64,000 bases of DNA. Origin: Mesotaenium endlicherianum. Taxonomy: Eukaryota. Both the position numbers and the translations under genes were made by a program. Of the stretch, positions 6,099 through 56,838 are shown piece by piece. The stretch lies in the NCBI GenBank assembly GCA_009602735.1, contig WELA01002483.1:41003-105002 (forward strand), written 5' to 3'. Under the pieces are notes generated by a model. It saw only the letters and a list, made by a program, of their open reading frames with translations. It made no database searches and had not been told where the DNA came from. Numbering within the stretch: position 1 is the first letter of the stretch; every line of letters begins with the position of its first letter.

Positions 6099-6474
6099 AA
6101 GCGCGGATTATTGTCATGAACAGTCGTGAATATTTTCAACTCGGTACTCTTGGTACCAAATGGACTGTATTGCTCCACAATTGCTCCACGTAGTATACTT
6201 GTCATGCTTGGTCTCGCCAAGTTCCTGCCATGCCCGTTGCGCAGTGACAATCAGTGACAATAGGCCAACAGCGTACCCGTTTCCGAAAGAGCTAGTATAA
6301 AGCACTTCGTTCAAACCAAGAAGGATATATTTATTAGCACTCCGAACTCCACGAAGATCGTCACTCAGGAGCAACTGGCCTATATTTCACTTCAGACGTT
6401 AATGCATTAAGTGAGATTTTCGAAAAACGATTGAACATTTCAACGCTTATCGGGCTTACTTAGCCAGGTCGAAG

Positions 6475-23902: not shown

Positions 23903-26900
23903 AAAAAAAAAAGAAGAAAAGAAGGCGTATGAATTAATTAAATGGGAGCGAGCTCTGAAATAACATGAAGGTCCATACTCATCTACTGAAAATCGCAAGG
24001 ACCGAGAACTGCTAAGGCGTCAACAAGGGAAAATGAAACGAGAGGAACTGGGGGTCGATGCACAGTCTTAGATAGGGCACTAGCTGCACGCTCGTGAATG
24101 GTAGAAGCCTGAGCTCTCTGTAGACTACAACCGACTAGCTGGCGGTACTCTCGCTTGATCGCGTTGACCAAGTCCCTGTAACCGGCATTGTCACTAGAGA
24201 CACCGAAGCTGAGGGAGACTGTGCGCTCAGCGCAAAGGTTGAGGAAGCCGTGGAACTTGGTGCCTAATGTCCCAAAAACCTCCAGCGCTAGTGGGACAAA
24301 GGTGTCGCCGACTGGAGTGTCGCTGTACTTGAGAGTCTTGGCCTTCTCCTTGATCGCCACCGCCACCCCTACTGTCGATGAAGCCAACTCCATGATACCC
24401 CCCTCGAGAGGATTGGCCACAACCACATCCAGCAATGTGCGCGCCGCCGACTCTCTCGCCATGCAGACAATATCCACACGGCGGCCCTTGGTCTGGGAGG
24501 GAAGAAGAGGGAGTAGGCCTCCCTTCTCCAAGGCCACCGCAAAATGTGACCTCCTCGCGATCATGGCGACGCTATCTCGGACAACGTCATGGGTCGCTGT
24601 GCGCTGCTTCTCTCGTGCACACCTCAAGACATGTGTAGTAGATGCCTCATCCCCACACGCACAAACTAGGTCAGCAAGGCACGGGTGTGTAATGCCTAGT
24701 CGTATACGGAGGGAAGTGCAAAAGTCTGAGTCTTGGAATGTCAAAGCTGGGCGAGTGGTAAGGGCCTGCACCCATGCACCTGCGCTAGGTCCGCCGCAGG
24801 AACGAATGCGGGCGCGGTCAGCCGAGGTGCTCTGTGCTAACAGGCCGTGCATGCGAGAACCCCACAGGACTCGAGCGAGAATGGCCTGCAAGCCCCTGTT
24901 CCCCTGCTCCACCATCGAAGAAAAGTCCAATTCTGGAGGCTCGTCCCCCAAGCAATCCGCTACCAAGCTGGACTTAGCCTCCACAAGTGCTGCTTGAAAA
25001 GAGAACGTCTTCGTCTCCACTTTCCCTATGGCAGCCGCAAGGATCTGGACGTCGTCGGCAGCAAAGCGGGTCGCAAGAAGGTGCGCAATGAGCCCCCAAG
25101 ACCCCAAGAAAGCTGCCGACGAGGTGAAGGCAAGATCTCCCAAGCCTACACCTCCCATGGAGCACGGGTGCACGGCCTGGGCAGCCCAAGACTGGCTAGG
25201 GTCAGATGGGCCAAGGCCAAGCAACTCGGAGAGAGCCATAATGAGGGACTGCCTAAAAGAGGCAAACTCTGAAAGAACGGAGGGGGTAGGGACTAAGGTA
25301 CGAGAGAGGTAAATTGGTCGAGCCGCTAGATAAAGAGTGAGGGGGGCAAGCAAGATCTGCGCGTTCCCCAGGGCTACAACCTGGGGGAGCTCCAATACCA
25401 CACTCTGGAAAAAGCGCTGTGTCTGATCTAGGATAAAGGCGGGACTGCCTACCCGGGTACCAAGGACACGGATACCCTCCGGTGAGCGACCAAAAGAGGG
25501 AAGAAAGTCAGCTGGGGTCGCAATGCCCTGCGGAGGGAAGATGGAACACTTGGCCTGCTGAACCCGAAGGCCCATGGAGCCAAGGTGAACCTTGAGAGAG
25601 GAAAAGGCAGCGCCCAACTGGTCCATGTGACCTACCAAGTGCGTATCATCTGCATACGATGGGACATGTACTGCAGGGAAAGCCTGACGGGTCAAGCGGA
25701 GAGCATGCAGGTGTCCAAAAGCAAACAAGGTCCCTGCTAAGGGGTCGCCCTGACGGGTCCCAGTAGCGGATGACAAAGTCGTCAAACTCCCACCCACATG
25801 CGCATAGTAGAGGGGAGACGAGGACCCGTAGAATGCCCGCATGAAAGGGACAAGGCTGGAACAGGTGCAATCACGAAGCTCGTCGAAGATGACTCCACGG
25901 TCGATGGTGTTGAAGGCGTTGGCCACGTCCACCTGGAGAACCCATAGGGATGGATCCACCTCCCGCGACGTCCGGATGAACGCGGCAATGGTCTCACACC
26001 CCCCCTGGAGAGCCACTCCGAACTGGTCCGGAGCAAAGTGAGCCTCAAAGGGCTCGCGAAGTTGCGAGGCTATGGCTCGGGCTGTAAGACGATACAGCAC
26101 CTCCTCCACCGCAATGGGGCAAACGCCTGCATCCCCCTTGGCTATAGCCACGAGCCTGGATGATGCCAATAGATGTGCTGCTCCAGGTGGAATCCGACCC
26201 TGAGCAATTAGGCCGCACACGGTGAAGAGGGCGCGGAATGCAATAGAACCAGCATCCATGCATGTGTCCTTAAAAAGCTCAAAGACTGTGCCTGAAGGTC
26301 CGCCCCCCGATCTGTTAGGTGCCGATCGTAGGGCGCGACTAAGAGCACCCTCCTCCAACTCTAGAGGTGCTGTAGGTGAGTAAGTAGTGAGCCAATCGGG
26401 CAAAGGGGAAGAGGAGGCTGGGTGGAGTGCTTGCAGACGCTCAATGGTGGCTGAAGTGTCAGGTGTTGGCGCATTGGGGAGGAGAGTTTCACGGGCCTTC
26501 CCTAACTCCCCAACCTTAGCTAACCTAACAGCACGTCAAGCTCTATACCTGTCGTCACCCACTACGTCATTAGTGGGAGGCGGAAGGGAATGCAAAGCCG
26601 CCAAAAACTCCTCAGCCAATTCCCTCCACTCGCCCCTAAGAAATCTCTGAATACGTGGGCGTATGTAGCGATGGCCCTTCACTAACGCATTAGGGGGGGT
26701 CCACAATAGGAGGCGATGGAAACTAAGGAGCAAGAACCAACCCCCCATATCATCAGGCTCTTTAGAAACTTGTCGCAAGGGGATACAGAATGCTTGGGAG
26801 AACAGAGGTCTGAGCTCATAAGGAAGTCGTCGCCTACAGCTAAGTCTACATGGCTGAAATATCTCAATAGGAAAGGAAATACGAGCCCACCTCCGTTGCT

Positions 26901-27243: not shown

Positions 27244-28704
27244 GCAGCCGAATCGCTACTACTTCACTATATCACTAAGGGCCAGTTTAAAGTGGCCAAA
27301 ATGAAAGCGACTTAATTGATAGAAAAGTATGAAGCTATACCTAGAAGTACATTGGCAAATTTGAGAGCGAGAAAATTGTGGTTTGTGGTCCCTAGGTGCT
27401 ACGTATTTGAGGGCCAATTTAAAGTGGCCTGATGTAGTGAAACAGATAGATAAAGTACTTGGTAAAACAGAATACTTTATCTATTCAAGATAAGGATCTT
27501 TGAACACAAGTGGTAGCTTCTTGAAAGAAATATGACTTCTTGAAAGTTAATATATTTCTGGATTTTGGCAAGTACAAGAGTGATTCTCCCCTGTCTTTCT
27601 ATGTTCTAGCTCTTGTTTATATACTTGCTACATAAGTAATTTCTAGGAAGGTGTATGTTGATGTGTTGGCACCCAACACATCCCAAAACTTGCCACCTCT
27701 TTCTAGAATAATGTACACATGTCCTTTTGACCTAAAAATGGCACATCTGACTTTTGCCACATGGAGTTCTTCTAGGTCTTTCCTCTAACTTCGAAAATGC
27801 CTTGGAAGGTTCAAAGGACATGAACCAAGTTACTAGAGTACCTATTCACACTTGACTCCACACAATACTACTCCAAATATATTTGAAAACATTAAAATAT
27901 ATGCAAACTAATATATAATAACTCAAATCACTACATCACCCCCCCGATAGAAAAAGCGACGTCTCGGCGCGTCAAGTCAGGTCTTACACATGTGGAGCAA
28001 ACTAGTCAACAGTTTCAAGTCAGATGCCACACATGTGAAGAGGACTAGTCAAAGGCGCCAAGTCAGGTGCTACACATGTAAGGTAGACTAGGCAAGGTCG
28101 TAGGTGGTGTGACCTTATTGGCTAGCCTACTCCTTAATGATAAAGAAAATTGTACAAGTTGGCCCAGAATCTGCCACGAACTCAAAAATTCATAGCGGCC
28201 ACAGAACTGCTCCAAATCTGAAAATTCGAGTGCCAGACGGACCGCGTCGGAGAACTCTACCGGGTCACCAAATTTGAGAGCATTCTCATTTCTGGAGTGT
28301 CGTTGAGAGCTGAGAGAGTAGGCACTCCTCCAAATCTGTGCAGAAACTTCTGAAAATCATAAGTCCTTCTATACTTCTCCAAATTCTGCAAACTAAGTCT
28401 CAAACTGGGCGCTGTAAGATGTTCTACCAGAGTCTTGAGTTTCAGAGCATTCCAAGTTCAGGGGAGGGCACAATGTCAGAAGGCATATTCTGCCCTAACA
28501 ATGCCAGCAGCCTGACCCCCTTCTACTTAGAGCATCATATCTCTCTCACCAGTGCTCCAAATTGAGCAAACTTGGACTCTAAATGACCGGCTACTCATGG
28601 ACTACAGCCAGGTAAATTTTCAGAATTTATTATGCAGAGACCTATCACCAGTAGCAGTTTTAGTTTTCTGTCCAGAAACTGCGAGAAGAGAAGAGTGTCT
28701 AATG

Positions 28705-31700
28705 TCAATTTTTCCTCTTTCTTGTTCTTGCAGGCTGCCTCCAAGGGGTCTTCTGCTGCTTCTTGATGGTGGCAGGCTGCCTCCCTGAAGTCTTCGGGCT
28801 TCTAGTAGAGAGACTTGGGGCTGGTCCAAGATGGGGGTTGGCGGCATGGAAGCGCTTCAACTTTCTCTGAACTTTGTCAAGGTAGTGCGCCGCCACCCAA
28901 CTATTCTCCGAATCTGGATATCCTTTCCACTTGATCAAGTATTGCTGCTGTCTCCTGAAATTTCTCATAGCCACTATGTCTTCCACTTCGTACTCCAAAT
29001 GATCATCCACTATTGTTGGGGCTGGTGGGGTTGTCACACGTCCTGGGAACTTGTTGTCGGGTTGCACATATGGCTTGAAGAGGGAAGCGTGGAATACGGG
29101 GTCGATGTGCATAGTCTGGGGAAGTTCTAGCTTGAAAGCAACGGGGTTGACTTGCTGGATAATCTTGAAGGGTCCCAAATACTTGGGAGAGAACTTGCTG
29201 CCGGCAGGCCTGTTGTTCAGGGAAATGTTCTTGGATGATAGTAACACGTTGTCACCCACTCTGTACGTAATTTCTCTTCTGGATCTGTTCGCCACTCTTG
29301 CTTGAGCATCTTGCGCGTGTTGTAGAGCTTTCTTCGCTGCTGTAAGGGCTGCTTCTAATGTCTCCATAAAATCTGTGGCTGCAGGTACTTCATCATGGCC
29401 AGCCGTGAAGCTCAGTGGCGTGGTCGGATGGAAGCCATAGTTGAGGAAGAATGGGGACTCTTGGGTAGAGGCCTGCGTAGTGTTGTTGTAGGCAAACTCG
29501 AGGGGGGTCAAGTACATGTCCCAGTCTTGCTCGAGGGTAGACACGTAGGCCTTTAGAGAGGTCTTTAGGGTACGATTCATACGCTCGGTTTGCCCATCTG
29601 ATTGTGGGTGGTAGGCAGTAGACATATCCAGCGATGTACCCAAGTTCTTGAAGAGATTTTTCCAGAAATGGCTTGTGAATCTTGGATCTCTATCTGACAC
29701 AATTCTTGATGGTAGTCCATGGAGTCGGAAGATGTTGTCAAAGATGAGTCTTGCAAGTTGTGGTGCTGTAGCCTTAGTCGTCGTGGGAATAAAATGAGCC
29801 ATCTTGGTAAGTCTGTCCACCGCCGTGAGTATTGCATTATGGCCTCGAGGTGTCACGGGCAAGTCCACGATAAGGTCCATTGAGATGTCCGTCCATTGTC
29901 TTTCGGGGATTGGTAGTGGTTGGAGGAGTCCTCCCGCCTTTTGCGATGATGGCTTGATTCTTTGGCATGTGTCACAGCTCCTGCAGTACTCCTTGACTTG
30001 CTTAGACATGCCTGGCCAACAATAAGTCCTAGCTAGAACGCCCGTGGTCCTTAGGATTCCAAAGTGTCCTCCAAGAGGGTTGTCGTGTGCTTCTCGTAGA
30101 AGCAAGAGCCGGAGGTCTAAGTCATTAGGAACACATCTCTGGCCCGTATCTTGCCTCACCCAATAATTGCCTTCTTGCTTCTTGCATGGGTCCAAGGCTG
30201 CTTCTCCGTTCTTGTAGTAAGGGTCTCTTTCATAGGCGGCTGAAAATCGAGCTTCCAGATCTGTCTTCAGGGATACCATCACTGCATTTAATTGCAGTCT
30301 TGAGAGGGGGTCAGCCGGGTTTGTCTTGCCGGGCTGGTACTGAATCGTGATGTTGTATTGTTGCAAGTATCCGCTCCATCTTGCTTGTCTCCTTGAGAGA
30401 TACGGCTGCGTTTGGAGGTGCTTTAACGCCTCGTGGTCCGTGGTGACCAGTACTTTGCGTCCTTCAACGTAGCAGCGCCAAACCTTCAAGGCATGTACAA
30501 TCGCCAATGCCTCTCGCTCCGTGGTTGTATAATTTTGCTCGGCTGGATTTAGCTTCCTTGACTCGTAGGCGATGGGCTGCAGTCCCTTGCCTTGGTCTTG
30601 AAGCAGGATTGCTCCTATTGCATAGGAAGATGCATCGGTGATGACGTGGAAGGGCCAATCTGGGTTTGGACTTGGGAGTGTGAGCACCGGGGATGTGGTC
30701 AATCTTCGCTTTAACTCTTGAAATGCCTCTTCCTCTTTCTCGGTCCATGTATATAGCCTGTCCTTCTTGAGTAGATCTGTCAGGGGGGCTGCTATGTGCG
30801 AGAAGCCTTGGATGAATTTTCTGTACCAATTGGCAAATCCCAAGAATGACTGGAGTTCTTTCTTGGTCGTGGGGGTTGGCCATTCCTCCACCACCGTGGT
30901 CTTCTTGGGGTCCATCTTGATGCCATCAGCAGTCACGTGGAGACCTAGGAACTCCACTTCTTGTTTGGCAAACTCGCACTTTGACTCCTTCGCAAATAGC
31001 TTGTTTTGCTTCAATACTTCAAGGACTTCTTTCAAGTGTCTCGCATGCTCTTCAAGGGTCTTGCTGTAGATAAGGATGTCATCGATGAATACCACCACAA
31101 ATCTGTCCAACATGGGCTGAAATATGGTGTTCATCATAGTCATGAAAGTTGCTGGCGCGTTGGTGAGTCCAAATGGCAGGACCATGAACTCAAAATGTCC
31201 ATATCTTGTCCTGAATGCCGTCTTCTCTATGTCCGGTTCTGCGATGCGAATCTGGTGGTAGCCGCTCCGTAAGTCAATCTTCGTGAAGTACTTGGCTCCA
31301 ACCAGCCGGTCCATGAGCTCATCCATGCGCGGCAGCGGGTATCGATTCTTGATGGTGATCTTGTTGAGGGCGCGATAGTCCACACACATCCTCAAGGTAC
31401 CATCTTTCTTCTTGACAAATAGCACCGGGGCTCCAAATGGCGACTTGCTAGGTCGAATGAAGCCATGCTCCAGTAGCTCCTTGATTTGCTTCTTGACTTC
31501 GTCTAGCTCCGTGTATGACATTTTGAACGTAGGCCGAGAGATGGGCTTGCTTCCGGGCTCCAACTCTATCTTGTGGTCTACGAATCTTTTGGGGGGTAGG
31601 CCCTTGGGCAATTCCGGGGAGAACACTTCTTTGTAGTCCTCTAAGACTTCTTGTATCTCCTTGGGAACGGGGCTGCCTTCTTGACTCTCGATGTCTTTCT

Positions 31701-32313
31701 TGATGTCTTTTGGCGTGATCAAGGCCAAAAGAAGCTCGTGTCCCTTCCTCACAAGTCTCTTGAGTTGGAGGGCGGACAATAGTATCTCGTGTGCCGGCTT
31801 CTGGATGTCTTGGGTCTGGATATTCTGGATTGCGCGCAAAATACAGATTCTTGAAGTGATGTCATTCTTGATCTTGATAGTACCGGTCCTCCAATCAACT
31901 TGGGGGTTGTGCTTGGTCAACCAAGGCGTCCCTAGGATGACGTCGTACTTGCCCAATTGCATGGGGGAGAACACTACTCTATCCTTGAAGGACTTGATAG
32001 AGAGTGCCAAGGGGTACGTCTTCTTGGAAGGGGTAGTATAGGAGAATCCATCGGGCATCATAATCTCCTCGTCGTGGTCAAGAGTTCGCATAGTAATACC
32101 GTGCTTGGTGGCAAAATCTGCAGCAATGAAGTTGCCTTGAGCTCCGCTATCCACCAAGATGTGGACCTTCTCTCCTCCAAGGTAACCTCTCAAACTCATT
32201 GGGGCTGGAACGTCGTCTTCAACGGGGGTCTCCACCTCACTTGGCGTGTTGCCTTCTCGTGAAGTGGGTCTTGGGGTGGTAGGCTCCTGGCCTACCGGCG
32301 CTGTCCGTTTTTT
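28705..32313 (-). CDS. pol: Element D pol (protease-RT-RNase H-integrase-chromodomain)
   Basis: LVDSGA, FIDD, TDAS, HHCC, DD35E core, [19 protein letters not shown]; uninterrupted. Confidence 0.95.
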
Positions 32314-33572
32314 GACAACTTTTTGGGGCATGAAAGTGCACGATGGCCCTTTTCCTTGCAATAAAAGCATAGTCCAGCCGTCATGAGAGCTTCTTTTTCA
32401 GCCGGGGAGAGTCTTGCTTTCACTCCTTGCTGGTTTCTTGCATCATAAGTGTCATTGGAGGGTCTTCCACTCTTCCGGGCAGCCGCGGGGTCCCTTTTAA
32501 TAACTCCGATTTCCATGGGTGTGGGTCCAGATTCGGATGTGGAAGGGGCTGCGTACACCCGCGTCGTCGGTACCCGTGAAGATGAAGGCACGGAGTGCTT
32601 GAAATCCAAGGTATCCACCTTTTGGGCCACTTCAATGATCTTTGAGAAGTCCGTCAAGTCGCGTAACTCCACTTCCTTTGCCACCTTGGGTTTGAGGCCA
32701 AAGATGTAGCGGTCAATCTTCTCCTCGAGAGACATGTTGGGGATCTCAAGAGTGAGGGCGTGAAATCTGGATGTATACTCTTGAACGGACGTCGTTTGCT
32801 TGAGATGGTGGAGCTTTCCTCGGGCAATCTTCTCCGCATTGATGGGCATGAATTGCTTCTTGAGGGCCTCACGAAAATCTGCCCATCTTGCATATGATGG
32901 TGGGGGCTCTTGGCCGAGCATGGGGTGCGCCATAGCTTGATATATAGCCGCTTGATAGTTACGCCACCATGATGTTGCTGCTCCTCTAAGTAAGGTAACG
33001 GCAAAGGGAACGTAGTCCTCCTCGGGTACTTCAAGGAATGCGAGGTACGTCTCCACTTGGTAGAGCCATAAATTCAGGTTGGCACCTTTCCCGGGGTTGA
33101 AAGTGTCGGGTTTGCCGGGCTTGATGAGTTTCCTTGCTCTCGTTGGCTCTTGTGGAGGCGCTTGAGCCGGGGCTGGATTTTGAGCATTGCTCGCAATAGG
33201 GGCAACCATGGCAGCCATAGCTTCTCTTGACGCTTGCACGGTTGCTTCATAGGTGGCCAAGCCCACTTGGTTGTGGACGGTCATTAGGAAGGCTGCCCAC
33301 TCATTTGCGGGAACTCCTTGTGGTGGGGTCAACTTTGCTATAGCGGCTGCCACGGGATTTGACGGTGCTCCTCCTTGTGGTGCTTCTTGTTGTTGGAGAT
33401 TTCCTTGAGTAGGCTCTCCCATCGACGCTGGAGGAGGGTGTGCTCCTCCTTGTGGTGCTTCTTGTTGTTGCAGATTTTCTTGAGTGGGCTCTCCCATCGG
33501 CGCTGGAGGAGGGTGTCTTGGAGAGGAAGGGCTTCCTTCGAAAGCTTGCTGTTGGTCTTGAGGATCGGCCAT
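32292..33572 (-). CDS. gag: Element D gag
   Basis: [45 protein letters not shown]; 75-bp internal tandem duplication near the N-terminus. Confidence 0.93.
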
Positions 33573-35204
33573 CTTCTTGTGCTACCAAAGTGCCTAGCTC
33601 CGATACCACTGTAGTGAAACAGATAGATAAAGTACTTAGTAAAACAGAATACTTTATCTATTCAAGACAAGGATCTTTGAACACAAGTGGTAGCTTCTTG
33701 AAAGAGAGATGGCTTCTTGAAAGTTAATATATTTCTGGATTTTGGCAAGTACAAGAGTGATTCTGGAATGTCTTTCTATGTTCTAGCTCTTGTTTATATA
33801 CTTGCTACATAAGTAATTTCTAGGAAGGTGTATGTTGATGTGTTGGCACCCAACACATCCCAAAACTTGCCACCTCTTTCTAGAATAATGTACACATGTC
33901 CTTTTGACCTAAAAATGGCACATCTGACTTTTGCCACATGGAGTTCTTCTAGGTCTTTCCTCTAACTTCGAAAATGCCTTGGAAGGTTCAAAGGACATGA
34001 ACCAAGTTACTAGAGTACCTATTCACACTTGACTCCACACAATACTACTCCAAATATATTTGAAAACATTAAAATATATGCATACTAATATATAATAACT
34101 CAAATCACTACACCTGATACAATAAAACTGATAAGTGCCGATTGCAAGAATGGAATTTACTTGATTGTATGCGACTAAGTTTGATTCATTCAAAATTTAG
34201 CTTGAACAAAATTGAATAGAAAAAGCTAGTTTACAGTGGATCAGGATGCTTTACAATGAAATAATCCAACCATGTTGATGCTGACAACAAATGACGTAAT
34301 TTTTGGCACTTTGTGACATGAGGGCACAAAAAGACAACACGTTCGAGCACGTTCGAGGGTTAAAACGCACTCGATGAGTTCATGTATGCTCGAAAGCAAA
34401 CTTGAAAATTTTAAATTGATATATTGAACCTCGATCTTCAACTTAATTTTTCAACATTCCAATCAAATACCTCGCGCTCGAAACCCACTCTAAAGCACCC
34501 TCTTTTCGCCTTCAATCGGCCAATGTGCTTCAAGGTACAGTATTATGGATTTCAGTCAATCAATTGAGTCTTGATTTGCTCATTGTAAACTAGGATTGAG
34601 TCAAGTTGGTAAAGAAGTTGATTTAACTTCAAGGTTTCAATCAATGTAGCTGGACTTTTCAAGTCTGCTCTCGAGCAGACTTTCAATCTTGGAATGTATT
34701 TGAGCCCTCATATGACACCTTCTTGTCGACCACTCCGTAGACAAGGACTGTCGATATTAGGTCAGGAATGCAAATATCACCCTACCATGCTGTACCCATT
34801 GTGTACTTCAAACGATCTTCGATGTAAATACGCCTTCTTAGGTCTGATTGAAATCAAAAATCCACGGAGAGGATGTGCGGCACTGTATGGCGAGTACGGA
34901 CCACTTTCTTCTATCAACTAAATGCGTGTGCATTGTGAACCAAATTTTGTATCCCTGTGTGCACATGTACTTTAATTTTTTCTTTGTCGCTTCGATTGAG
35001 TGAATTTTGAATATGTCGTGCGGTAGGAAGTCGGGTGCGTACTTCCGACATAAGCAATGCATAATAAGCAAGCAGGCTTTGGTGCAATGAAGTCTATAAT
35101 ACATGTGGCTTTATAGCCAGAAAGATAGTTAAGCGTCAAATGTTTTTATTCCCCCCCCAGCTCTCAGCTGCCAGCTGATGGGCTGTGATCGCTGCCTAAG
35201 GCTA

Positions 35205-35350
35205 AAGCTGTACAGTCATTACAAAGCCAGTCTCCAGCTGGCACCCGGGCCAGCGGCGGGTCAAGAAAGCCGATGTGGAAGCCGAGGTTGCAACTGTCGT
35301 AGAGCAGCATCCTGGCTTCCTGGCCGGGGCTGTGGCAGATCTGGCACGCC
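35205..35350 (-). pseudogene. PHD finger at the integrase C-terminus (two Cys lost)
   Basis: CQICHSPGQEARMLLYDSCNLGFHIGFLDPPLARVPAGDWLCNDC. Confidence 0.85.
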
Positions 35351-38300
35351 CAGTCCTTGGGCGACCTCGCATCGCGGGGATGAACCTGCATGTCAAGGTT
35401 AGGAAGGTGGCATGGTCCACAATTCTTCGTGTGGTCCTTGTGAAGACGGCCCTCTGCACCTTCCAGCTCCAGAACTCCTGACGCCAAGACACGCCTGACG
35501 CGCAGGATGGCGGGCGAGCTGCTGGTGTCGAGGGTGTTCTTCGTCTGGCTTCACAGGTACACAAAGTCACCTGCAGAAAAATGCAATACCCGCGGACGGT
35601 AGGCTCCTCCACGAGTCATGGCATACCTCAGTGTGTCGCGGTGCTGAGCAAGACTGAGGTTGTCCATGGCCATGGGCATCAGGCGCTGAAAGAGCTGTGC
35701 TCGCTGCCTGATAAGAGCGCTCCACGTCTCGGGACTCTCCAAGTCCAAGACGTTCTCGGCCATGGTCCTGGCTGCTGCAGGCAGGACTGGCTGTCGGCCG
35801 TAGAGAAGGAAGTAGGGAATGCGAGGCCAAGGAGGCCTGCCTACTGAACCTGTACCCCAAAGCCAACCATGGGAGGTCGTCGTCCCAGTGGGTGCTGTCG
35901 TGGGCCAGGCAGTACTTCCGCAGCCCAAGCTTGACGGTCTGCACCATGCGCTCTGCAAGATCGTCAGCCTGGGAATGATCACAGGATGTGGTGCGGTGGA
36001 TGATCATCGAGCGCTCCAGCAGCTTTTGAAAGCTGCCCTGGAACTTCTTGCCTTGGGCGGTTAGGACCTCAGCGCAGCCGCCAAAGTGGCTAAGAACTTG
36101 GTCGAGGAAAGCTTGGGCAATCCCCTCACTGGCCTTGCTGGGCAAAGGCACAAGCTCGATCCACTTGGACATGTGCTCAATCATCACCAAGACGTAAAGA
36201 TTGCCTCGGCGAGACTTGGGCAGCTCTCCAGCCAAATCGAGCGACCACCTGTAGAACAACCCCTGAATAAGAAGAGGGCTGAGAGCAACGATGCGGGCTG
36301 TGAAGCTCGAGCGCACCCGGTCGCAAAGAAGGCAGCTGTTGACAACGTCGGCGACGACCTTAGTCATGCCGTGCCATCACTATACGGCTTGGAGGAGGCT
36401 GAGAGTGCGCTTAATACCAAAGTGTCCAAGTGTCTCGTGCACACGCCGTACCAGCTGGCTGCGTATAGCAGGCTCAGGAACCACCAGGGCGGAGCTGTCC
36501 GCCATCACTCGTCGCATGCGCCCCTCCACGAAGACAAAATCCCGGCTGCGCTTTAGGATGCGATTGCGCTTGCGCGCACTGATGCCTGGGGCCAACTCCT
36601 TGGCCGTGACGTATTGTAGTACTGGAGCGTGGTCCCATACGTCCTCAGGCCCGCGCTGCCAACTACCTGCTCCTCAGCTGCTGCCAGCGCCAGTCGCCGA
36701 GTGGTGCCAGCGCCAGTCGCCGAGTGGTGACGGTCACCATGTCTAGGCTAGTGAGCCCGGCGGGCTGCACGTCGCCGTCCACGGTGAAGGCCAGGAACGC
36801 CGCTGCGTGCCAAACCACTGGCTCATCCTCATCGTGGCGGGCCACCGTGAGGTCCCTCGAGGAGGACAAGGGGTTGCGGCTGAGGCCGTTGGCGTCCAGG
36901 TTCGTGGATCCTGGACGATGATGCACGTCGAAGGTGAACACCTGTAAGATGAGCGCCCACCGTGCGTACTTGCCTGTCGGGCGCTCCGACGTCATGAGCC
37001 ACTTGAGTGGTTAATGGTCAGTGACCAAGCAGAAGTGGGTGCCGTAGAGATAGTGCCTGAAGTGCACAATTGCCCACACAGCTGCCAAGCACTCCCCCTC
37101 ATAAGAGCCGTAGTTGCCCTCAGAACGGTTGTTGCTGCGGCTGGCGTACGTCACCACATGCTCAAAGACGTCATGCTCCTGCACCAACACTGCTCCAAGC
37201 CCCGCCTGCGACCAGTCGGTGTGGAGGAGAAGGGCTTCTGATAGTCAGGCCGCCGTAGTATTGGGGCGCTCACCAACAGCTCCTTGAGCTTGTCAAACGC
37301 CGCCTGCTGCTCTGGTCCCCATACGTAGGCAACGCCCTTGCGTAGCAAGTCGTTGAGCGGCTTGGCTAGCTCGCAGAACCCAGGCACAAAGCGGCAATAG
37401 TAGTTGGCGATGCAAAGGAAGGCCCTCAGCTGTGAAAGGTCGGTCGGCGGCGGGATGCCAGTGATGGCTAAGATCTTGGCCAGTTGAGGGGCCAGGCTAC
37501 TGGAAGACAGGAGATGCCCAAGGTACTCCACCTCTCGGGTCCCAAAGGTGCACTTGCCTGGATGGCACTTGAGCCCAACGGCCTCCAAGCGGTCCAAGAG
37601 CGCAGTGATGTGCGCCACGTGCTCCTCAAACGTCTCACTGAAGACGAGCACGTCATTGATGTAGCACCAGGCAAAGAAGAGCCCTGCCAACTCCTTATCC
37701 ATGACCCGCTGGAAGGTGGCAGGTGCGTTCTTCAAGCCAAAGGGCATAATCCTCCACTTGTAGAGACGCTACAACCACCAAAAAGCCGTGTTGTGCTGCT
37801 CCTCCTCCGCGATGGGTATCTGGTTGAAGCCCTGCCTCAAGTCCAGCATCGAGAACCAAGAACAAGCCCCAATGTCGTCAAAGATCTCGTCAAGTGCCGG
37901 CATAGGATATTTGTCCTGCTCAGTGACCTCGTTCAGCTTACGATAGTCACCGCACATTCTCTTCTCAGACCAATTGCCTGAGGCGTCCTTCTTAGTTGGC
38001 ATGACTATGGGCGCAGCGTAGGTGGAGGCAGACTCACGAATGAGCTGACACTCCTCTAGCTTGCCTGTCTGCGTGCTAATCAGGTCGTCCTCAAATTGAC
38101 TGTAGCGATAGCGCTTCTGGAAGGTGGGTACGTTTGTCTGGAGGGGGATCCTCATGGGGTTGCCTGAGTAGCGCCCAAGATTGTGCATGCCGCTAGCAAA
38201 GCTGGCACTGCGGCGTGCATCCAGCAATGCCGTCAGCTGAGCAGCCTGTGCCTTAATGAGAGTCCCCCCAGCTTCCAAGTAGGGGCAGCTGGTGGTGGCT

Positions 38301-38715
38301 CCTGCGCTGCAGCTGGCGCCTCCTGCCCTGCTGCTGGCGTGATTTGTGGGACTGCAAGCGTCACCTGCCCTGCAGCGGGGTGCGCTCGGCCTGCCTCGGG
38401 TGCCTCCTCCTCAGCAACGGCTGCCAGCTGCCCTGCACGACCTGTCGAAGGCTGAGAGCATGGAAAAAGAAATGGGGAGCAAAACTCCCTGCGTCGCTGT
38501 GAGGGCTCCTGTCCCCTCTTGCCCCCTCCCAGCAAACAAGAACCAAGACCAGGACGCGGCGCAGACGGCTGCCGAGAAGTAGGACCCGCACGCTGGGAAT
38601 GCCAGGTCGTACCAGGCGGGGCGCTGAGGTCGTCGGAATCACGGTCCACGGCGTCGTAGGACTGGTCCATTTCAGGATGACGAGCCTGGGCGTAGAGGGG
38701 AGTCAGGGCTTGCGC

Positions 38716-39600
38716 CTATAATAGGATCCACGTCAAAACGTTGGCGTCAATAGCCTGGCCAAGGTGACGCACGCGGTTGACCTCAGTGATGCCGTCCACC
38801 TGTGTGAGGTGCGGAGGGAAGCCCATCGCCCGCTCCATCTTCACGATCATGCCGAGCTGGTCCCCCACGTAGGCCGCGCTGTTGTAGCGACTCACGAATG
38901 TAGGAAGCGCCCTTGTGATGTCATGGATTACCGCACACTGGGCCGAGAAGGATGCGGAAGGGCGACCACTTGCGGGGCCAGGCGCGCGACGTCGAGGATG
39001 GAGGCAACGCTGCGCGTGTGGCATGGATGTGCGGTCGACAACGCCTCTAGCGTGCCGGGCATGGGCAGGTTGGTGAAGTAAGCACGCACGCGGTGCGCGA
39101 AGGAACCAATCTGGGCAGCATCGATGACGGCCTCACGTCCGACGTAGCTGGTGCAGAGGGCAAATTTGGCGCTAACGTTGGGCCAAAAATTGTGGCGTAC
39201 AGCCACGTTCTCTAACACCCAGGCGAGCGTGTGAGGCGGCAGATGCCAAAACAGGGCCGTACGCGGGTCAGCGAGCGCGCCTCCTTGTCCCGCAATGGAG
39301 AAGCCCTGGCACTCCTAGCCAGCGATGATGAGGTCGATGGACCCCAGGCGTGTGATGTGCTCGGCGGTGATGTCACGGATGTCCATGGGCCAGTCCATCT
39401 GGGCGCGGTAGAAGGCGTGCTCAGGGAAGAGGTCCAAGAAACGCTCGTGGCACAAGGCCATCTTCCTGCGGGCCACCTGCTGCGCCTCGCCATCAGGGTC
39501 CACATAGACGTACCAACGTACTGGGATGCCAGCCTAAAGGGTGGCCAGCAGCCCTGTCGCAATGCCGGCAAAGAGCTCGACAAATACAATGCCGCCGGGA
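38716..39600 (-). pseudogene. C5 cytosine DNA methyltransferase domain within pol
   Basis: Motif I VELFAGIATG, YVD, DIRDI, motif IV IDLIIAG*ECQGFS, motif VI VLENV, motif VIII AHRVRAYFTN, motif IX MERAMGFP, motif X LGQAIDANV. Confidence 0.88.
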
Positions 39601-42218
39601 CGCTCGTCGAGCTGGGCGGTGTAGATAGGCGTAGGAAGGGGGCGATAACCCATGGCGGGATCGCCTGCCTGGGCTGGTGGAGGGTAGGAGCGCTAAAGAT
39701 TGTGCTGATGGGGCGCCATGCAAAGGGCTGCCACTGCGCGATCTGCGTAGTGACGGGCAAGCCGAGGAATGCGCTCGAGCAGCGCCTGCGGGCGAGCGGT
39801 GCGAGCATGCGCCTGGTATGTGCGCCAGCGCGCGCGTGCATCCTACAATGCCTCCTCAGGCACTGGGCGGGCCATAGCCTGCGCGTCGCGCACGCACTGC
39901 AGCTGCCACCCGTCTCTCGCCCTGTGGTCGGCGTGGTGTGACGCGCACTACAGCTGCCACCGGTCCCTTGCCCTGTGGTCGGCGTGGTGTGACGCGGCGT
40001 GGGCTAGCTGCTCTGTGGCTGTGCGTTGGTGCAACTGGGGACGCTCATCGAAGTACAAACACTGACGCTCGCAAAAATCCGTCTGGGTGGGCACTGTGCA
40101 GACGGAGCGCTCGTCCCTGGCTGCCGCCTGTCGAGGGCGAACAAGCTGACGTGGAGCGAGCTGGACTCGGAGACGCAGCGGAGAAAGACAGGCGAGCCGG
40201 ACGCGCTCCTGCTGGCGGCGCTGCATGATCTCTGCGCGTATGGCGGTAGTGTAGAGATAGCGGTCGCGGGGCCTGAGAGTGGTACGGGCCACCTTATGAG
40301 GAGGTGATCCAGACAGCCCGTCGCCGGCTATGTGGCTGCGCGGGACGGCGGCAGGCCAGCCGATCGGCGTCTGGTACAATACGTGAGCGGCAGTGGTGGA
40401 GGAAGACTGTGCGTCATCATCACCGGTGCGGAGATCGCACGGGCCGTTGTAAGGCGGTGTGACTGAGCGCGGGCGCGTCTCGCGCAAAGGAGTGATCTCC
40501 CTCTCCTCGCAAAGTGGAGTAATCTCTCGTGCGCTCCTGTGCATGTCGCGCAGAGGCGTGACCTCGCGAGCAACCCTGGCCTGCTCGCGGAGAGGGGTGA
40601 GCGCACGTGCGCGCCGGTCTGGCGACATAGTGCCGCGTGCAAGGCGCAGAGCCGGACTAACGTACGGAGAAAGACCTGTACGTCGAGGGCCAAGGATGCT
40701 GCTCCTGGGTCCTAGGTGCCGAGCATGTACGGCTTGCAGATCGGCGGCATGGAAAGGTGTCGTGGAGGCGGCGCTGGCTGAGGCGCGAGCTGCCCGGCCT
40801 GTGCCCAGGCTGTTGCCAGCAAACAAGTGCGTAATGTCACGGCACTCGTTGCTAGCCAAACAGTTGTGCTGTATCGGCCGACTGGGCCCGCCAGCACATC
40901 AATGGGCTCGACTGCCCGTAGTCTCGTGCGAGAGTGTGCTGAAGTTGGGAGGTCCTGTTGGCTGGCGTTGGACGCAGGCCGTAGGCATGGGCGGCGGTGG
41001 CTCCTCTAAAGGCTGGGCTGCGAGCTCCTCTGCGGCCTCTTGGGACCACTCGTGCCACTCCTCCTCCTCAAAGTTCTCCAACGACGCGTCGTCGGACCTG
41101 CCTGGATACGCCGCCTGCCTCATAGCCTCATCCTCAGATGTGGTAGTGCGCGGCTAGGAGTCACCCGTCCTGTGCGACGGTGCGGGCGAGGGCGTTTGGG
41201 AGGCCATGCGATACTGCATGGCGGCTCCCACAGGAACGTCATGTCGTACGCAAATGTCCGATCTCGCGGAGGATCCACTGGCCGCTGGAGGCTGCGACAG
41301 GGGGGGCGACCGCAGCGGCTGTCGCTGCGTCGTGGGCGTGCGCTGCAACAGTGATGACAACCGTGGCGATGGTGTGTGCCTCGACGGCGTCTGCCGCCAT
41401 CACACGCATTATGGCGTTATGAGCGGCGTAGATCCGTACTGTCTCCCTGGCTTGTGCAGCCAGAGTGTCAACCTGCTCCTGCGGCGTGAGGTGGAGCTCG
41501 GCGCCAGACAGCTCGGGCTCCTCTTCCAGCGTCTCAAGCAAGTCAGCGCCGACGGAGACCTCATCATCCTCGGCTCCCCCCTTATTGGTTTGAACCACGG
41601 GCCGGCCGTCGTCCAGCGCCATGAAGCCGTAGAGGGCGGACTCAGCTGAACAACGATCCACGTTGTCAAGCGGCACGGATGCAGTGCGGGTCCCCCCTGA
41701 CTGCCAGTCAGGTCGGTAGAAGACCCGCTCCACCCAGTTATCTACTGCGGCGCCGATGGGAGAGAGAACGTCTTGGCCAAGGAGCACGTCGAAGGTCTCA
41801 GAGCGGGTGACCAACGCGTGCCGGTGATTGGTCGTCTCATCCGAAGTGCCGGGCCAAAAGGTGAAGCAAAGGGCCAGCCGCGTGCGCCCGGTGACGGTCT
41901 CGTACGTGCTTGCTGCGGTGTTGATCCGCGTCGGCAAATCCTCTAGGTCGACTGGCGAGAGGCTCAGCTGGCGGAAGTAGCGCAGGCTGATAAGGACCGG
42001 CTAGGCGCCAGTGTTGAACATGATGCGCTGCGGGGCCTGCGTGTTGACGAGCACGATGCCCTGCAAATTATCCAAAAACGCAGCGTGAGGCGTGCTGATT
42101 ATGCTGCGCTCATGCGCAGGTCGCGCGGCTGCTGCGTCTGACGCTGACCTGCCGTCGGAGGCGCGTTGGCTGGCCCTACGTGACTGAAGCAATAGCTAAG
42201 TTGCCTGCCGTGTGGCCT

Positions 42219-43310
42219 TGAAATGAATCGACTTACCAAATAGGCGATTAATAATTAATAAAGATCTTTATATCAGGAAGTAATCTTTATGGTATTTTCC
42301 GACAACTGATTTAACAGCAAAGGACAACACACTAGCAGCGAAAAATACTCGTAAGTCAAAAGCAAGTAAACTAGCATCAATAATGCAATCAGTAAATTCA
42401 TACATAAGTAAGGTTGGACGACGGTGCGTATCAATGGCTTCTCGCCTTGGATTCAGATCTCTCTCAGTAAGCGGTACAGAGAGTTGGCCTTGTTTTCGAA
42501 TGCCGACCTCGAGAGCAATGCCTAGCATATGTACAGGGAATCAGTTTACTGTTCAACGGCCAGTGCGATGGCACCGCCTACCCGGGAGTTAACCACGTTG
42601 GTAGGACCTCGGTTAACCAAATCCACCGCCATCTCCTATCATCCCGAATCGCCATCCATCCTAGGGATGTCATCTGGCCATTCATCTAGCATACCACACT
42701 TAGATGCATATCGAGGCAGTTCGCTGCTACCGAGTACGGAAGTCAGTTGGCTGTCAAAGAATGTGTCAGCAAGCTGACTTAAGTTGTTTTCAGCTTGCTG
42801 CTTCCGGTTGAGTCCTTAACTGATAATTATATAAAGTCCAGCAGACTCAATACTACATAAAGTTCAGTAGGCTGAACTGAATTTACTATTATATTTAAAT
42901 GAATATCATATCTACTAATATACTGATTCATTATAATCCCTTTAACTTGTTGTCGCCTCGACAACATTAAATTGCAGAAGTCTCTGGTCAGGGAACTGAA
43001 CTTGACCAGCCTCCCACACTGACTGCCTCTTCAGCCTGTCACCTAGGGGGTTGTTCCTGGGGCTTCAGGATCAGGAGACTAAGATTTGGACCTAGATCTG
43101 GACAGCCCTCTAGGTCTGTCAACTGGCCTTCTAAAGAAACCCGTTTGTTCTAAAGTTGGACCTCGAGGAGAACGAAGGATGGTAGCCTGCTCTTCAACCA
43201 CTTGGGTGGTGATCACCACATAAACAGGCATTCCAGTAGGGTGCTGAAATTCATTGGCAAGAGGTACATGCTCCTGAGCGAAAGGAGAGGCCGGCGTACC
43301 TTTGGCCACC
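42219..43310 (-). mobile_element. Family F1 chromovirus, element A: 3' LTR (42219-42935), PPT and C-terminal end of the extra ORF; interrupted by element B
   Basis: Reverse copy of the 43311-44033 LTR; PPT ACAACAAGTTAAAGGGAT; ORF 43079-43309 matches the end of the ORF at 60310-60495. Confidence 0.88.
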
Positions 43311-47478: not shown

Positions 47479-50400
47479 TGAAAAGGGCAAGGTGCCCTAG
47501 TGGAAGCGTAGTGATTCACGAGGAAAGGAACTAGTTGCAATCATACTAGAGAGTGCAGCGGTATATCACTAACAAAGTTTAGGAAAAATACTCGACTTTT
47601 TGAGTAGCAAGAAACTGCTCACAAATGATGTAGGATGAAAGGCCTTGTCATTGTCTACCCTGAACCCTAATACTATTCAAGAGTCCCATAAATGTAGCAG
47701 GTGCATTAGTTAACCCAAAAGGCATGACTGTGAACTCGAACAAACCATAGCGAGTTCTGAAAGCAGTCTTCTGAACATCTCCTTCCGCAATTCGTACCTG
47801 GTAATAGCCACTCCTCAAATCGATCTTTGAGAAATACTTTGCCCCGACAAGCCTGTCAATCAACTCGTCCACTTGTGGAAGTGGGTACCTGTTCTTGATG
47901 GTGACCTTGTTGAGAGCCCGGTAGTTGATACACATCCTCATAGCCCCATCCTTCTTCTTCACAAATAAAACTGGCGCTACAAATGGAGACTCGCTGGGTG
48001 GGATGAATCCCTTCTCCAATAACTCCGTCAACTGCTTCTTCAACTCGTCCAACTCCGCAAACGATTGACGATAGGCGGGTCTCACGGGTGGCTTGCTCCC
48101 TGGTTCCAACTCGATCTTGTGCTCCATAGCTCTCTGTGGAGGTAATCCTGCAGGTAGTTCCTCAGGAAATACGCACTTGAACTCCTCCAACAGCGCCTTA
48201 ATTTGGGCAGGCATCTCAGCAGGCTTCTTCTCTTGAGCAGCTGGGCTCTGCTCCTTCTGAGCAAGGGGATCAGACACCACTACTTGCTCCTCCGGCGATG
48301 TACATTCGCCCAGGCTGTTAGGATTCACGCTTGCTCCATCTGATGACCTGGCCAGGGCCACCGAAACAAGGTGCATCTCCATCACCTGATTCGCCCTGCA
48401 TAGCTTCTTAACTTGCAGGCTCGACAGAAGACAGTTACTTGTGGTCGTATCTACCTCCACCTGTTTCGCTGTCTCCATTCGACCATCACGCCCTTGGACT
48501 TTCACTTGTCCTGTGCTCCAGTGCACTTGAGGGTTGGCTTTTTCTAGCCATGGTCGGCCCAATAACTTCAGTACTCTGGTGCCCCGCTACTTCCACATGA
48601 ATAGCTTCCGTAGGTGCACCTCACTTGAGTCTCTGCCCATTCGCCAAAATTGCCTCCTTAGGCTCATAATGCTTCTGCACAGGGATTCGCCACTCTTTCA
48701 CCAGCTTCTTGTGCACAAAGTTTGCACTTGCGCCACAGTCGACCATACACTTCGCCTTGTTGTCGTCGACTACTCCTTCCACGATGATAGGCTTGTCAAC
48801 ATCTCGTCCTTTGCTTCTCGACAGGCTCCTGGGGATAACCTCCTTGTGAGTTCTTGTCTTCACGCCAGTAGACACCCTAGAACGACTTATTGGCGTCCTC
48901 CTTTTTCCTGCTGTTGAGGTTGCTTCGTCTTCACGTCACAGTCTCGAGCCAGATGTCCAAGCTTGCCGCAATTATAGCAGGGTCCTCTCGGCTTCAGATT
49001 CTGCTGCAGGCGCTGGTACTGCACAAGTCCCAAATCCATAGGTACTGGGCCTTGTCCACTCGTGCTCGGCGCTTGAGATCCAAAGTGTCGATATCCTCCA
49101 AAGTTGTGGCTGCCCCACTGCCTCTGACTATACTCCACAGCGTCGACCCTTGTTGCCAATGCCATCATTTCTCCAAGACTGGTAGGGTCCTTGAGCGCCA
49201 CTTTCTTGGCCACAGTTGGCTTGAGTCCCCTCTTGAACTTGTCCATCATCTCCGACTCGTGCATGGATGGACATTGGAGCACCAGCTCGTTGAAGCGCGA
49301 TACATACTCTTGAACGCTTGCTCGTTGACGAAGGCGCACCAATAGATCTCGAGCAGTAGCCTCGGGTGCAATAGGTTGAAATTGCCTCTTCAAGCCTTCA
49401 AAGAGCTGATCAACAGTAGCAGAACTCCAGATAGCTGCTCTTCTCGTTCATACCAAGCTCCAGCACTCTTCTGCAGCAAAGTTATGACAAAGGCGACGTG
49501 CCTGTCGGGCGTGAGCGCAGAATACTCCATAAACTTCCTCACTCCAAAAATCCATTGATGAACAGGCGGCGATCCACGCTCTCCAGTATAAACTTCAGGC
49601 TTAGGCGCACGCACTCCTGATGCGGGTGGAATAACTGGTTGTACCACTGGCTTAACATGAATTGGTGGTACAACGGGTGCAGGTGCCAAACTCGTCGAAG
49701 CGGCGTTCCCCATAACAACTCGCACCATTCTCTCCACCTCCGCACGCATATTTTGTTGAAACTGGGTGTAGACTTCTCCTCCAATTGCATTTGCCATTTG
49801 CCTTAGCATCGCCTGCATCTCTTGTTGCTCTCTGGTCATTGTTGGTGCTGCCTGCTGCCCCGCGCGCTCAACATGCTCGACATGTTCGCCTCCTCCAGCT
49901 GCCGGCTGCGACTCCATAATATAATATGCAAACTAGCCCAGCTCCGATACCAGATGAAAAAGGCAAGGTGCCCTAGTGGAAGCGTAGTGATTCACGAGGA
50001 AAGGAACTAGTTGCAATCATACTAGAGAGTGCAGCGACATATCACTAACAAAGTTTAGGAAACTACTCGACTTTTTGAGTAGCAAGAAATTGCTCACAAA
50101 TGATGTAGGATGAAAGGCCTTGTCATTACAAACCCGTAGAAATTTGCAGAATTGAAAGTTGATAAGAAACAAAGAAGTTATGCCTATTTATAATTTTCTG
50201 CTTAAGTGCTCCTCCCTAGGAGGAAGCTACGGATTTTCCTAAGTGTTCGTCAAATTGTCCCTTCCAGAATATTCGTGAGTAAGCCAGATCAGTCTAATCT
50301 GACGTATCAAACCGAATTGACGTCCACATACATGCATCGACATTACTAAAATATTCAATCTTAGACGAGCTATGTAAGGTCATAGGTTTATAAAGTGCAT

Positions 50401-56400: not shown

Positions 56401-56838
56401 TTTCCTAAGCTTTGTTAGTGATATGCCGCTGCACTCTCTAGTATGATGGCAACTAGTTCCTTTCCTCGTGAGTCACTACGCTTGCACTAGGGCACTTTGT
56501 CCCTTTCACGCTAGGCTACTTCGAAACATCTAGGTAAATCGACCTAGTCGGCAATCCGCGTCAGCCGAACTTACGTGAAGGTTCGAGTTCATTCTAACGG
56601 GCCAGATCGCTCGACGCTGTCGGTCAATCCGACGGGCGCGCTCACCGCAAATTAAGGACAGTCGTCAACCTACCTCAAAACTAATTAAATTTCGGAAATC
56701 CATAACTCTCTCAATACTTGACCAAATTCAATGAACTTTACATCAAAATGACCACCAAAATGCACTCTATACTACTACACAATCAAAACATACTTTTATG
56801 AAACTCAAAAATGCACTTTATAAACTTATGACCTTACA
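47479..56838 (-). mobile_element. Family F2 chromovirus, element C, internally deleted; its 5' LTR (49955-50372 + 56514-56838) is split by element E
   Basis: TSD cagat at 47474-47478 and 56839-56843; PBS next to 49955; gag 48887-49917; protease/RT 47670-48875; deletion from mid-RT to the distal part of the 3' LTR (47479-47652). Confidence 0.9.
50373..56508 (+). mobile_element. Family F2 chromovirus, element E, full length with point stops
   Basis: LTRs 50373-51109 and 55765-56508; TSD agcta/cgcta; PBS TGGTATCGAAGC; PPT GAGGAGGGGGATGA; gag 51147-52178 (stop at 51510); pol ~52150-55777 (stops ~53300, ~53327, ~54359) with chromodomain. Confidence 0.95.

Follow-up and report, generated by a model that had tools for sequence, protein, structure and literature searches.

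A decayed Ty3/Gypsy copy with its own DNMT3-type methyltransferase and a PHD finger in Mesotaenium endlicherianum

A Dnmt3-type domain within a Gypsy element has been described as KnitGypsy-Dnmt3 in Klebsormidium nitens (de Mendoza et al., 2018; PMC5890265). Many retrotransposons carry PHD fingers (PMC6673714, PMC9940879), and REM1 of Chlamydomonas is a PHD-bearing Gypsy element cited in both of these sources. In a 64,000-nucleotide stretch of Mesotaenium endlicherianum DNA (contig WELA01002483.1; hereafter the window), the minus strand at 35014-42218 holds a decayed Ty3/Gypsy copy that carries both, namely its own DNMT3-type C5-methyltransferase and a PHD finger. The family is assigned to the KnitGypsy-Dnmt3 lineage, a class already published, to which the window copy contributes a further host and a branch of its own that is divergent. 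A first-pass annotation of the window had called this class known but rare; known it is, from Klebsormidium, but 230 long proteins found across streptophyte and chlorophyte algae show that it is not rare. The analysis drew on six-frame translation, Pfam profiles, comparison with related loci (L-numbers) and related proteins (P-numbers), and summed contig depth.

Layout, boundaries and relatives of the element

Six-frame translation of the minus strand from 42218 to 35164 gave the order protease, spacer, C5-methyltransferase, reverse transcriptase (RT), RNase H, integrase and PHD finger (Table 1), which keeps the Gypsy Pol order of protease, RT, RNase H and DDE integrase. The six C5-methyltransferase motifs first recognized in the sequence all lie on this strand, in canonical order between protease and RT. 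Both profile searches proposed at that stage gave matches: PF00145 to the methyltransferase (37.8 bits, E 2e-9, cut-off 22, with two TAG stops read as X) and PF00628 to the PHD finger, which follows the integrase on its C-terminal side; in two neighbouring elements of the window, a chromodomain occupies this position.

The window copy is dead, as the first-pass annotation had recognized, because it contains 11 in-frame stops and several frameshifts and has lost key catalytic or zinc-binding residues in the protease, RT, integrase and PHD finger. The methyltransferase has two TAG stops, one frameshift near 38940 and two short gaps; the integrase lacks its second Asp and has stops and one frameshift. 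Of the 11 stops, 8 are TAG, which would be compatible with deamination of methylated cytosine. The spacer is probably a decayed low-complexity linker. It measures about 2.1 kb, compared with about 350-420 nt in most related loci, has a GC content of 65%, a CpG observed/expected ratio (o/e) of 0.99 and long open frames, and found no protein match among the proteins gathered in this analysis.

The element had been placed at 35151-42218, and neither position is a natural end. At 35014, the true 3' end, summed depth rises from 49-59 in the single-copy flank to over 13,000, and nine contigs of one run continue past this position into dissimilar flanks. At 42219, a reversed long terminal repeat (LTR) of another family begins; since this foreign LTR interrupts the element, gag and the 5' repeat lie outside the window. 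Copy state was judged from the summed contig depth of DNA runs, which is not a copy count; the stretch was contained in runs of 4 of 24 rows, all from one sample and none of them listed as RNA, whereas 11 rows under the same species label had almost none of its sequence words and do not enter the result. From one end of the element to the other, methyltransferase included, summed depth lies in the thousands to tens of thousands, so the family is multi-copy in its host. Some host-run contigs skip 35465-38320 and 38844-39043, which suggests internally deleted derivatives of the family.

Table 1. Features of the methyltransferase-bearing element and its interruption, in window coordinates
Feature	Position	Strand	Evidence
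DNMT3-bearing Ty3/Gypsy copy, decayed, 5'-interrupted, present part	35014..42218	-	domain order; multi-copy along full length; both ends
Aspartic protease; one stop; Asn at catalytic Asp position	41701..42120	-	PF13975 E 1e-5 (below curated cut-off); 34% to intact L043 protease, E 1e-20
GC- and CpG-rich spacer, about 2.1 kb	39597..41700	-	multi-copy in host runs
DNMT3-type C5 cytosine methyltransferase; motifs I to X unpermuted; motif IV Glu-Cys	38716..39596	-	profile, sequence and motif evidence
Reverse transcriptase; one stop; YxDD reads YIND	37340..38260	-	PF00078; 47% to Closterium P0002
RNase H; one stop and a frameshift	36816..37339	-	PF17919; 52% to P0003
DDE integrase: H2C2 zinc finger, rve core, C-terminal region	35347..36649	-	PF00665 E 2e-10; 44% and 41% to P0003
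PHD finger, predicted unmethylated-H3K4 type; two zinc ligands replaced	35212..35346	-	PF00628 33.8 bits, E 3.4e-8
G-tract = polypurine tract	35151..35158	-	sequence; tract also stands ahead of B in related loci
Terminal repeat B, 137 bp, end ...CACGACA as in relatives; no A2-B2 here	35014..35150	-	depth step, diverse flanks
LTR of unrelated Gypsy family interrupting the element upstream of the protease; not its own	42219..42936	-	89-91% identity to three other window copies

Relatives are numerous and fall into two layouts. A search with one relative's methyltransferase domain matched the 230 long proteins; among the 120 listed, 79 read RT-RH-DNMT-INT-PHD (RH, RNase H; INT, integrase), 102 have a PHD finger and none has the methyltransferase before RT. 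The search with the window domain gave 879 clusters at E ≤0.001, and the 150 listed include proteins with the window's order. From metagenomes, the best 80 of 349 confirmed matches were kept as related loci, which stem from few samples and in some cases repeat the same insertion; 59 show the window's layout, one the other of the two layouts and 20 are too short to tell, while 26 are complete through the PHD finger. Intact relatives, the existence of which had been surmised, were found, for example L043, in which both open reading frames (ORFs) are uninterrupted. Named sources of relatives are Klebsormidium nitens, Mesostigma viride, four Closterium strains, Tetradesmus, Enallax and Haematococcus; the entries from Tetradesmus and Enallax look like ORFs of transcriptomes.

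In the second, derived layout, the methyltransferase follows RT-RNase H and adjoins the integrase-PHD region. The RT/RNase H tree (52 rows) unites this layout in one clade (99/100) and places the window among the first-layout rows, with L043 as its nearest row at 58%; the methyltransferase tree splits the layouts in the same way (94/93, or 99/96 with more rows). These trees used 35 of 117 derived-layout proteins, dropped eight near-identical loci and were rooted with two outgroups; in the RT tree, two chromovirus-type RTs of the window stand on a long separate branch. An earlier FastTree RT tree had put the window beside the derived clade, and the later tree, to which more rows of the window's layout were added, does not fix where the window falls among these rows. 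Because both trees split the layouts alike, the methyltransferase is inherited with the element; the simplest reading would be a single capture and a later move of the domain to a place beside the integrase. The window and K. nitens domains share a 21-tip group (0.87) by FastTree, whereas IQ-TREE places both outside the derived clade and no more precisely than that, in trees built without a cellular DNMT3 outgroup.

The methyltransferase and the PHD finger

By sequence comparison and fold modelling, the methyltransferase is of DNMT3 type. The best solved relatives of the window domain in sequence searches are DNMT3C, 3A and 3B (E about 1e-6), and a profile search gave E 5e-27 for DNMT3A; in that search chain 4onj, of DRM type, reached 1e-12 and HhaI 3e-10. 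A fold model of the open Glu-Cys domain of L011, made from a 60-row alignment, reached a pLDDT of 96, and all 30 listed fold matches were DNMT3A/B/C; thus sequence, profile and fold searches each place DNMT3A/3B/3C first. Structure in the Atlas also supports the DNMT3 type, and its two best feature matches are mostly phage methylase clusters. The domain is unpermuted and intronless within the polyprotein region, as judged from motif order in the window and from continuous ORFs in L011 and L043.

The catalytic Cys, the motif VI Glu and both motif VIII Arg residues are present in the window copy and have a frequency of 1.00 in 210 relatives with near-full methyltransferase domains; residues of the SAM (S-adenosylmethionine)-binding motif I and of motifs VI, VIII and X are kept across relatives. 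Pro-Cys is the dipeptide expected in motif IV of an active C5 enzyme, and the window copy has Glu-Cys instead. This substitution, which the first-pass annotation had reported as unusual, is real in the window and is the commonest state of the family (of 210 domains, at least 127 have Glu and at least 69 have Pro). Glu-Cys as a product of the window copy's own decay is ruled out by that commonness. On a 50-row methyltransferase tree, Glu and Pro interchange at least six times, which suggests that both forms are functional. Substitution ratios among the open-frame relatives L035, L042 and L043, rather than among host copies, show purifying selection on the methyltransferase of the relatives, with dN/dS of 0.10-0.13 in all three pairs (0.04 for RT). 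Catalytic activity is predicted for intact members of the family.

Among solved PHD fingers, the nearest to that of the element is KMT2D, and most of the nearest are KDM5 PHD1, CHD4, PHF21A, AIRE, BAZ2 and UHRF1, all six of which bind unmodified H3 tails. Asp or Glu stands three residues ahead of the first Cys in 74 of 133 family fingers, with an acid within five residues in 102; Leu, Phe, Val or Ile precedes the third Cys in at least 125; and Trp occupies what we presume to be the aromatic-cage position in a single finger of the 133. These residues agree with the class that binds unmethylated H3K4, which is described as having no aromatic cage, an acid before the first Cys and a hydrophobic residue before the third (PMC3241642), and the PHD finger is predicted to bind this mark. 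The finger probably directs the integrase rather than the methyltransferase. Finger and methyltransferase need not go together, because PHD fingers occur in many retrotransposons and because P0154 and P0258, relatives on the Closterium side, have the methyltransferase without a PHD finger.

Termini, a proposed cycle and its alternatives

The termini of the relatives follow the order A1, ORFs, G-tract, B1, two bases, A2 and B2 (A...B-A-B), as published for KnitGypsy-Dnmt3 (PMC5890265). A begins with TGTCA and B ends with GACA, which places the TG/CA ends inside the LTR. Exact 4-bp target duplications flank five of six distinct insertions with both ends, the sixth having one mismatch, and they include two copies with A...B only (L047 and L068). 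B begins at the base after the G-tract, and in 15 loci the A2|B2 junction joins there with a variation of a few nucleotides. The sequence after A1 can pair with a site 31-34 nt after the TATA box: 15 of 23 loci, or about 9 of 16 distinct insertions, show complementarity of 11-15 nt, which none of 200 shuffles per locus reached. ARAGORN found no tRNA gene in five of five loci, a search that does not test for a tRNA primer site. The 3' end of the window copy consists of B with no A2-B2 after it, and the window contains no match to a short motif for the host A end. In host contigs and reads, B has a second upstream context at exactly 35150, as well as diverse downstream flanks. Split repeats of the form A-coding-B-A-B are therefore read directly in the relatives and would be indicated indirectly, by the two upstream contexts of B, for the host family. 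L079, an element of the second layout, shows a CGACA-nn-TGTCA junction and spaced direct repeats at 9305-9327; since it shares the junction, the split termini are probably older than the relocation of the methyltransferase.

A further feature of some relatives lies between the methyltransferase and RT. L001, L035, L042 and L043 have an in-frame TAG followed by CAR-YYA (5083-5091 in L043), similar to a readthrough motif, and L005, L018, L020, L057, L059 and L061 have a stop followed by CAA at the matching position. No TAG-CAR-YYA signal was seen in the window copy or in the L011 type. Readthrough of the TAG would place the methyltransferase in the abundant Gag-side product.

The explanation that we regard as probable, without holding it firmly, is that working members of the family package the methyltransferase with RT, methylate their new cDNA in cis and use the PHD finger to guide the integrase. 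The true LTR would then be B-nn-A, with the attachment (att) sites inside it. Transcription would start about 30 nt after the TATA box in A, and the 5' end of the RNA would prime its own reverse transcription at the complementary site right after A1. The linear cDNA would run from the base after the G-tract to the end of A, would lack TG/CA ends and would be end-joined into a circle; the DDE integrase would cut the CA-nn-TG site inside the LTR and insert the DNA with a 4-bp duplication. A two-LTR circle would give an A...B-A-B copy, and a one-LTR circle, or later recombination between B1 and B2, would leave only B at the end, which is the form of the window copy. The methyltransferase would act in cis inside the particle, so that the copy would arrive pre-methylated, and the integrase-borne PHD finger would bind unmethylated H3K4, steering insertion away from active promoters. 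Self-priming has been described for Tf1/Sushi and predicted for Tcn1 (PMC6317226), and cis action of the Gypsy-borne enzyme was argued by the authors of PMC5890265.

Insertion from circles by a DDE integrase is suggested by the A...B-A-B termini, the internal TG/CA, the 4-bp duplications, the self-priming site and the end-joined A|B junctions taken together. In its boldest form, which we put forward tentatively and consider plausible rather than probable, the family would be an ancient green-lineage Gypsy clade with att sites inside the LTR, in which a DDE integrase integrates circular cDNA in convergence with DIRS elements, an active Glu-Cys enzyme pre-methylates that cDNA, the PHD finger aims the circle at H3K4-unmethylated chromatin and the circle is an obligate intermediate. 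Circles of cDNA are usually regarded as dead ends for LTR elements.

Several observations weigh against this proposed cycle. With respect to the termini, 8 of 23 loci have a self-priming match of only 6-9 nt. Either att site of a free circle would be expected to open, yet the alternative A-B-A...B form was found in none of the 23 loci that have a 5' repeat. Most of the terminal evidence derives from a single subfamily in which some loci are the same insertion (about 16 are distinct), the A repeat and target duplication of the host family lie beyond the window, and B-only copies could also come from recombination. With respect to the enzyme, dN/dS is higher, at 0.09-0.53, in pairs of decayed copies, and Glu for Pro before the catalytic Cys may affect activity. 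In the host, the methyltransferase has a lower summed depth than RT and integrase, so derivatives without the methyltransferase may exist. In two RNA runs, of which 6% and 13% were read, no RNA read fell on 38376-41447, and few fell on the integrase, PHD finger and terminal repeat. CpG o/e of the element is 0.69-1.12, as against 0.38-0.61 in three neighbours, a comparison that GC content confounds; such weak CpG depletion counts against long-term CG self-methylation, which would not predict it. The K. nitens domain, the sole Gypsy-borne one with a published assay, gave no methylation in yeast, where human DNMT3B failed too, and the authors considered the assay inconclusive (PMC5890265).

The strongest competing explanation, though in our view an unlikely one, is that the methyltransferase is active but works chiefly in trans, with host chromatin, rival elements or the insertion site as its targets instead of the cDNA of the element that encodes it. 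Where TAG and CAR-YYA separate the Gag-protease-methyltransferase portion from RT (L001, L035, L042 and L043), enzyme levels would be Gag-like and far beyond the need of one cDNA, and the element is not CpG-depleted. However, a readthrough-like signal is missing from the window copy and from the L011 type, high enzyme levels would equally fit many copies packaged in a particle, and the K. nitens methylome is reported to be ordinary and plant-like (PMC5890265).

Quite unlikely, too, is a domain that has its fold and catalytic Cys intact, has ceased to be a normal methyltransferase and instead binds or flips cytosines or traps them covalently, for example as a shield for the cDNA or a decoy for the host's methylation readers. 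Glu in place of Pro in at least 127 of 210 relatives would fit such a role, as would the negative yeast result for the Klebsormidium enzyme (PMC5890265); the family of that enzyme, however, has the Pro type in its one sequence examined (P0163). The conserved residues of the SAM-binding motif I and of motifs VI, VIII and X, and the six or more Glu/Pro interchanges suggesting that both forms work, argue instead for an enzyme.

It is improbable that the PHD finger and the methyltransferase form one coupled module, comparable to the ADD and catalytic domains of animal DNMT3, which would methylate beside unmethylated-H3K4 nucleosomes. The first-pass annotation had described the element as pairing a methylation writer with a histone reader. 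Both domains are indeed present, the finger has the features of the unmethylated-H3K4 class, and in the derived layout (79 of 120 proteins listed) the methyltransferase adjoins integrase-PHD. In the window layout, however, RT and RNase H lie in between, together with an in-frame stop in one subfamily, the protease would likely cut the domains apart, and either domain occurs without the other.

The methyltransferase as a one-off host-gene fragment or assembly chimera in an ordinary Gypsy copy, a reading to which the broken state of the window copy and its fivefold longer spacer might lend colour, can be set aside as having almost no chance, given the shared layout of 59 of 80 loci (26 complete with PHD), the uninterrupted L043 ORFs, the multi-copy host state and the congruent trees. 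The first-pass annotation had named a missing DNA_methylase match, or family copies lacking the domain, as what would speak against it; the analysis found a PF00145 match, the shared layout and the multi-copy state in the host.

Neighbouring features and comparison with known systems

The window contains further mobile elements and genes. An apparently intact chromovirus lies at 27433-34112 (minus strand), with an open gag of 429 aa, a pol of 1230 aa with a chromodomain, 503-bp LTRs that are 98% identical and a 5-bp duplication (CCTGA); RNA reads fall on its LTR. At 47479-56841 and 42219-64000, a Gypsy element sits inside an LTR of its own family in opposite orientation, twice (87-96% identical), with resulting kilobase inverted repeats centred near 50370 and 61021; such nested same-family insertions may reflect targeting of own LTRs. 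In a neighbouring Gypsy family, an extra ORF with no function assigned lies downstream of the integrase (59122-60348, plus strand), with an inverted partial copy near 62600-63364. At 23983-26535 (minus strand), an 850-aa ORF in which Pfam recognizes an RT domain but none of LTR type is probably a non-LTR element. The uninterrupted ORF at 6415-8034 (plus strand) encodes two WRKY domains, with domain-level matches of 34-64% to land plants and no close full-length relative, as would be compatible with a streptophyte algal host.

Among described systems, KnitGypsy-Dnmt3 resembles the window family in its unpermuted, intronless Dnmt3-type domain in the Gypsy Pol region, its DIRS-like repeat arrangement and its purifying selection (PMC5890265). 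The K. nitens protein GAQ93235.1 (P0163) has a zinc knuckle, protease and then methyltransferase, the last being 35% identical to the window domain (pairwise E 1e-28); motif IV reads Pro-Cys in P0163 and Glu-Cys in the window. The word PHD is absent from the main text and three supplements of PMC5890265, whose figures, including the domain Fig. 4c, and main supplement may show one. Similarly, its main text does not mention target sites or circles for KnitGypsy-Dnmt3, and its main supplement may show duplications. SymbioDIRS-Dnmt3 also has a Dnmt3-type domain in Pol and A-coding-B-A-B repeats, but differs in its tyrosine recombinase and its CG activity in yeast (PMC5890265), as against the DDE integrase and 4-bp duplications of the window family. 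Membership in DIRS is ruled out by the rve and H2C2 integrase domains together with those duplications.

Gypsy-7a_cRei of Chlamydomonas likewise carries a PHD finger as an accessory domain of a green-algal Gypsy polyprotein, where it is proposed to bias insertion, while no methyltransferase is among its listed domains (PMC9940879). Chromoviruses, including Tf1/Sushi and Tcn1, share a chromatin reader at the integrase C-terminus, and self-priming is predicted in Tcn1 as it is here; their reader is a chromodomain and their LTRs form an ordinary pair with outer TG...CA (PMC6317226), in contrast to the PHD finger of the window element. The PHD in place of a chromodomain at the integrase C-terminus rules out chromovirus membership. 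Among proteins of solved structure, animal DNMT3A/3B/3C come closest both by sequence and by fold (TM about 0.7, query-normalized), at about 21% identity to the window-type domain, which lies within a polyprotein, has no ADD or PWWP and has a longer insert after motif I. A literature search of titles and abstract starts, outside which most subscription papers fell, returned none on Gypsy elements with PHD and methyltransferase or on circle integration in this clade.

The class was published from one alga as a lineage-specific capture, and here it appears as an old and widespread clade that includes Mesostigma, Klebsormidium, Closterium and three chlorophyte genera. Many intact natural enzymes are now at hand to decide whether Gypsy-borne methyltransferases are active and whether the C5 catalytic motif can do without Pro. 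Provided that the termini have been interpreted correctly, the family would also provide a natural case of a DDE integrase that uses circular DNA and internal attachment sites.

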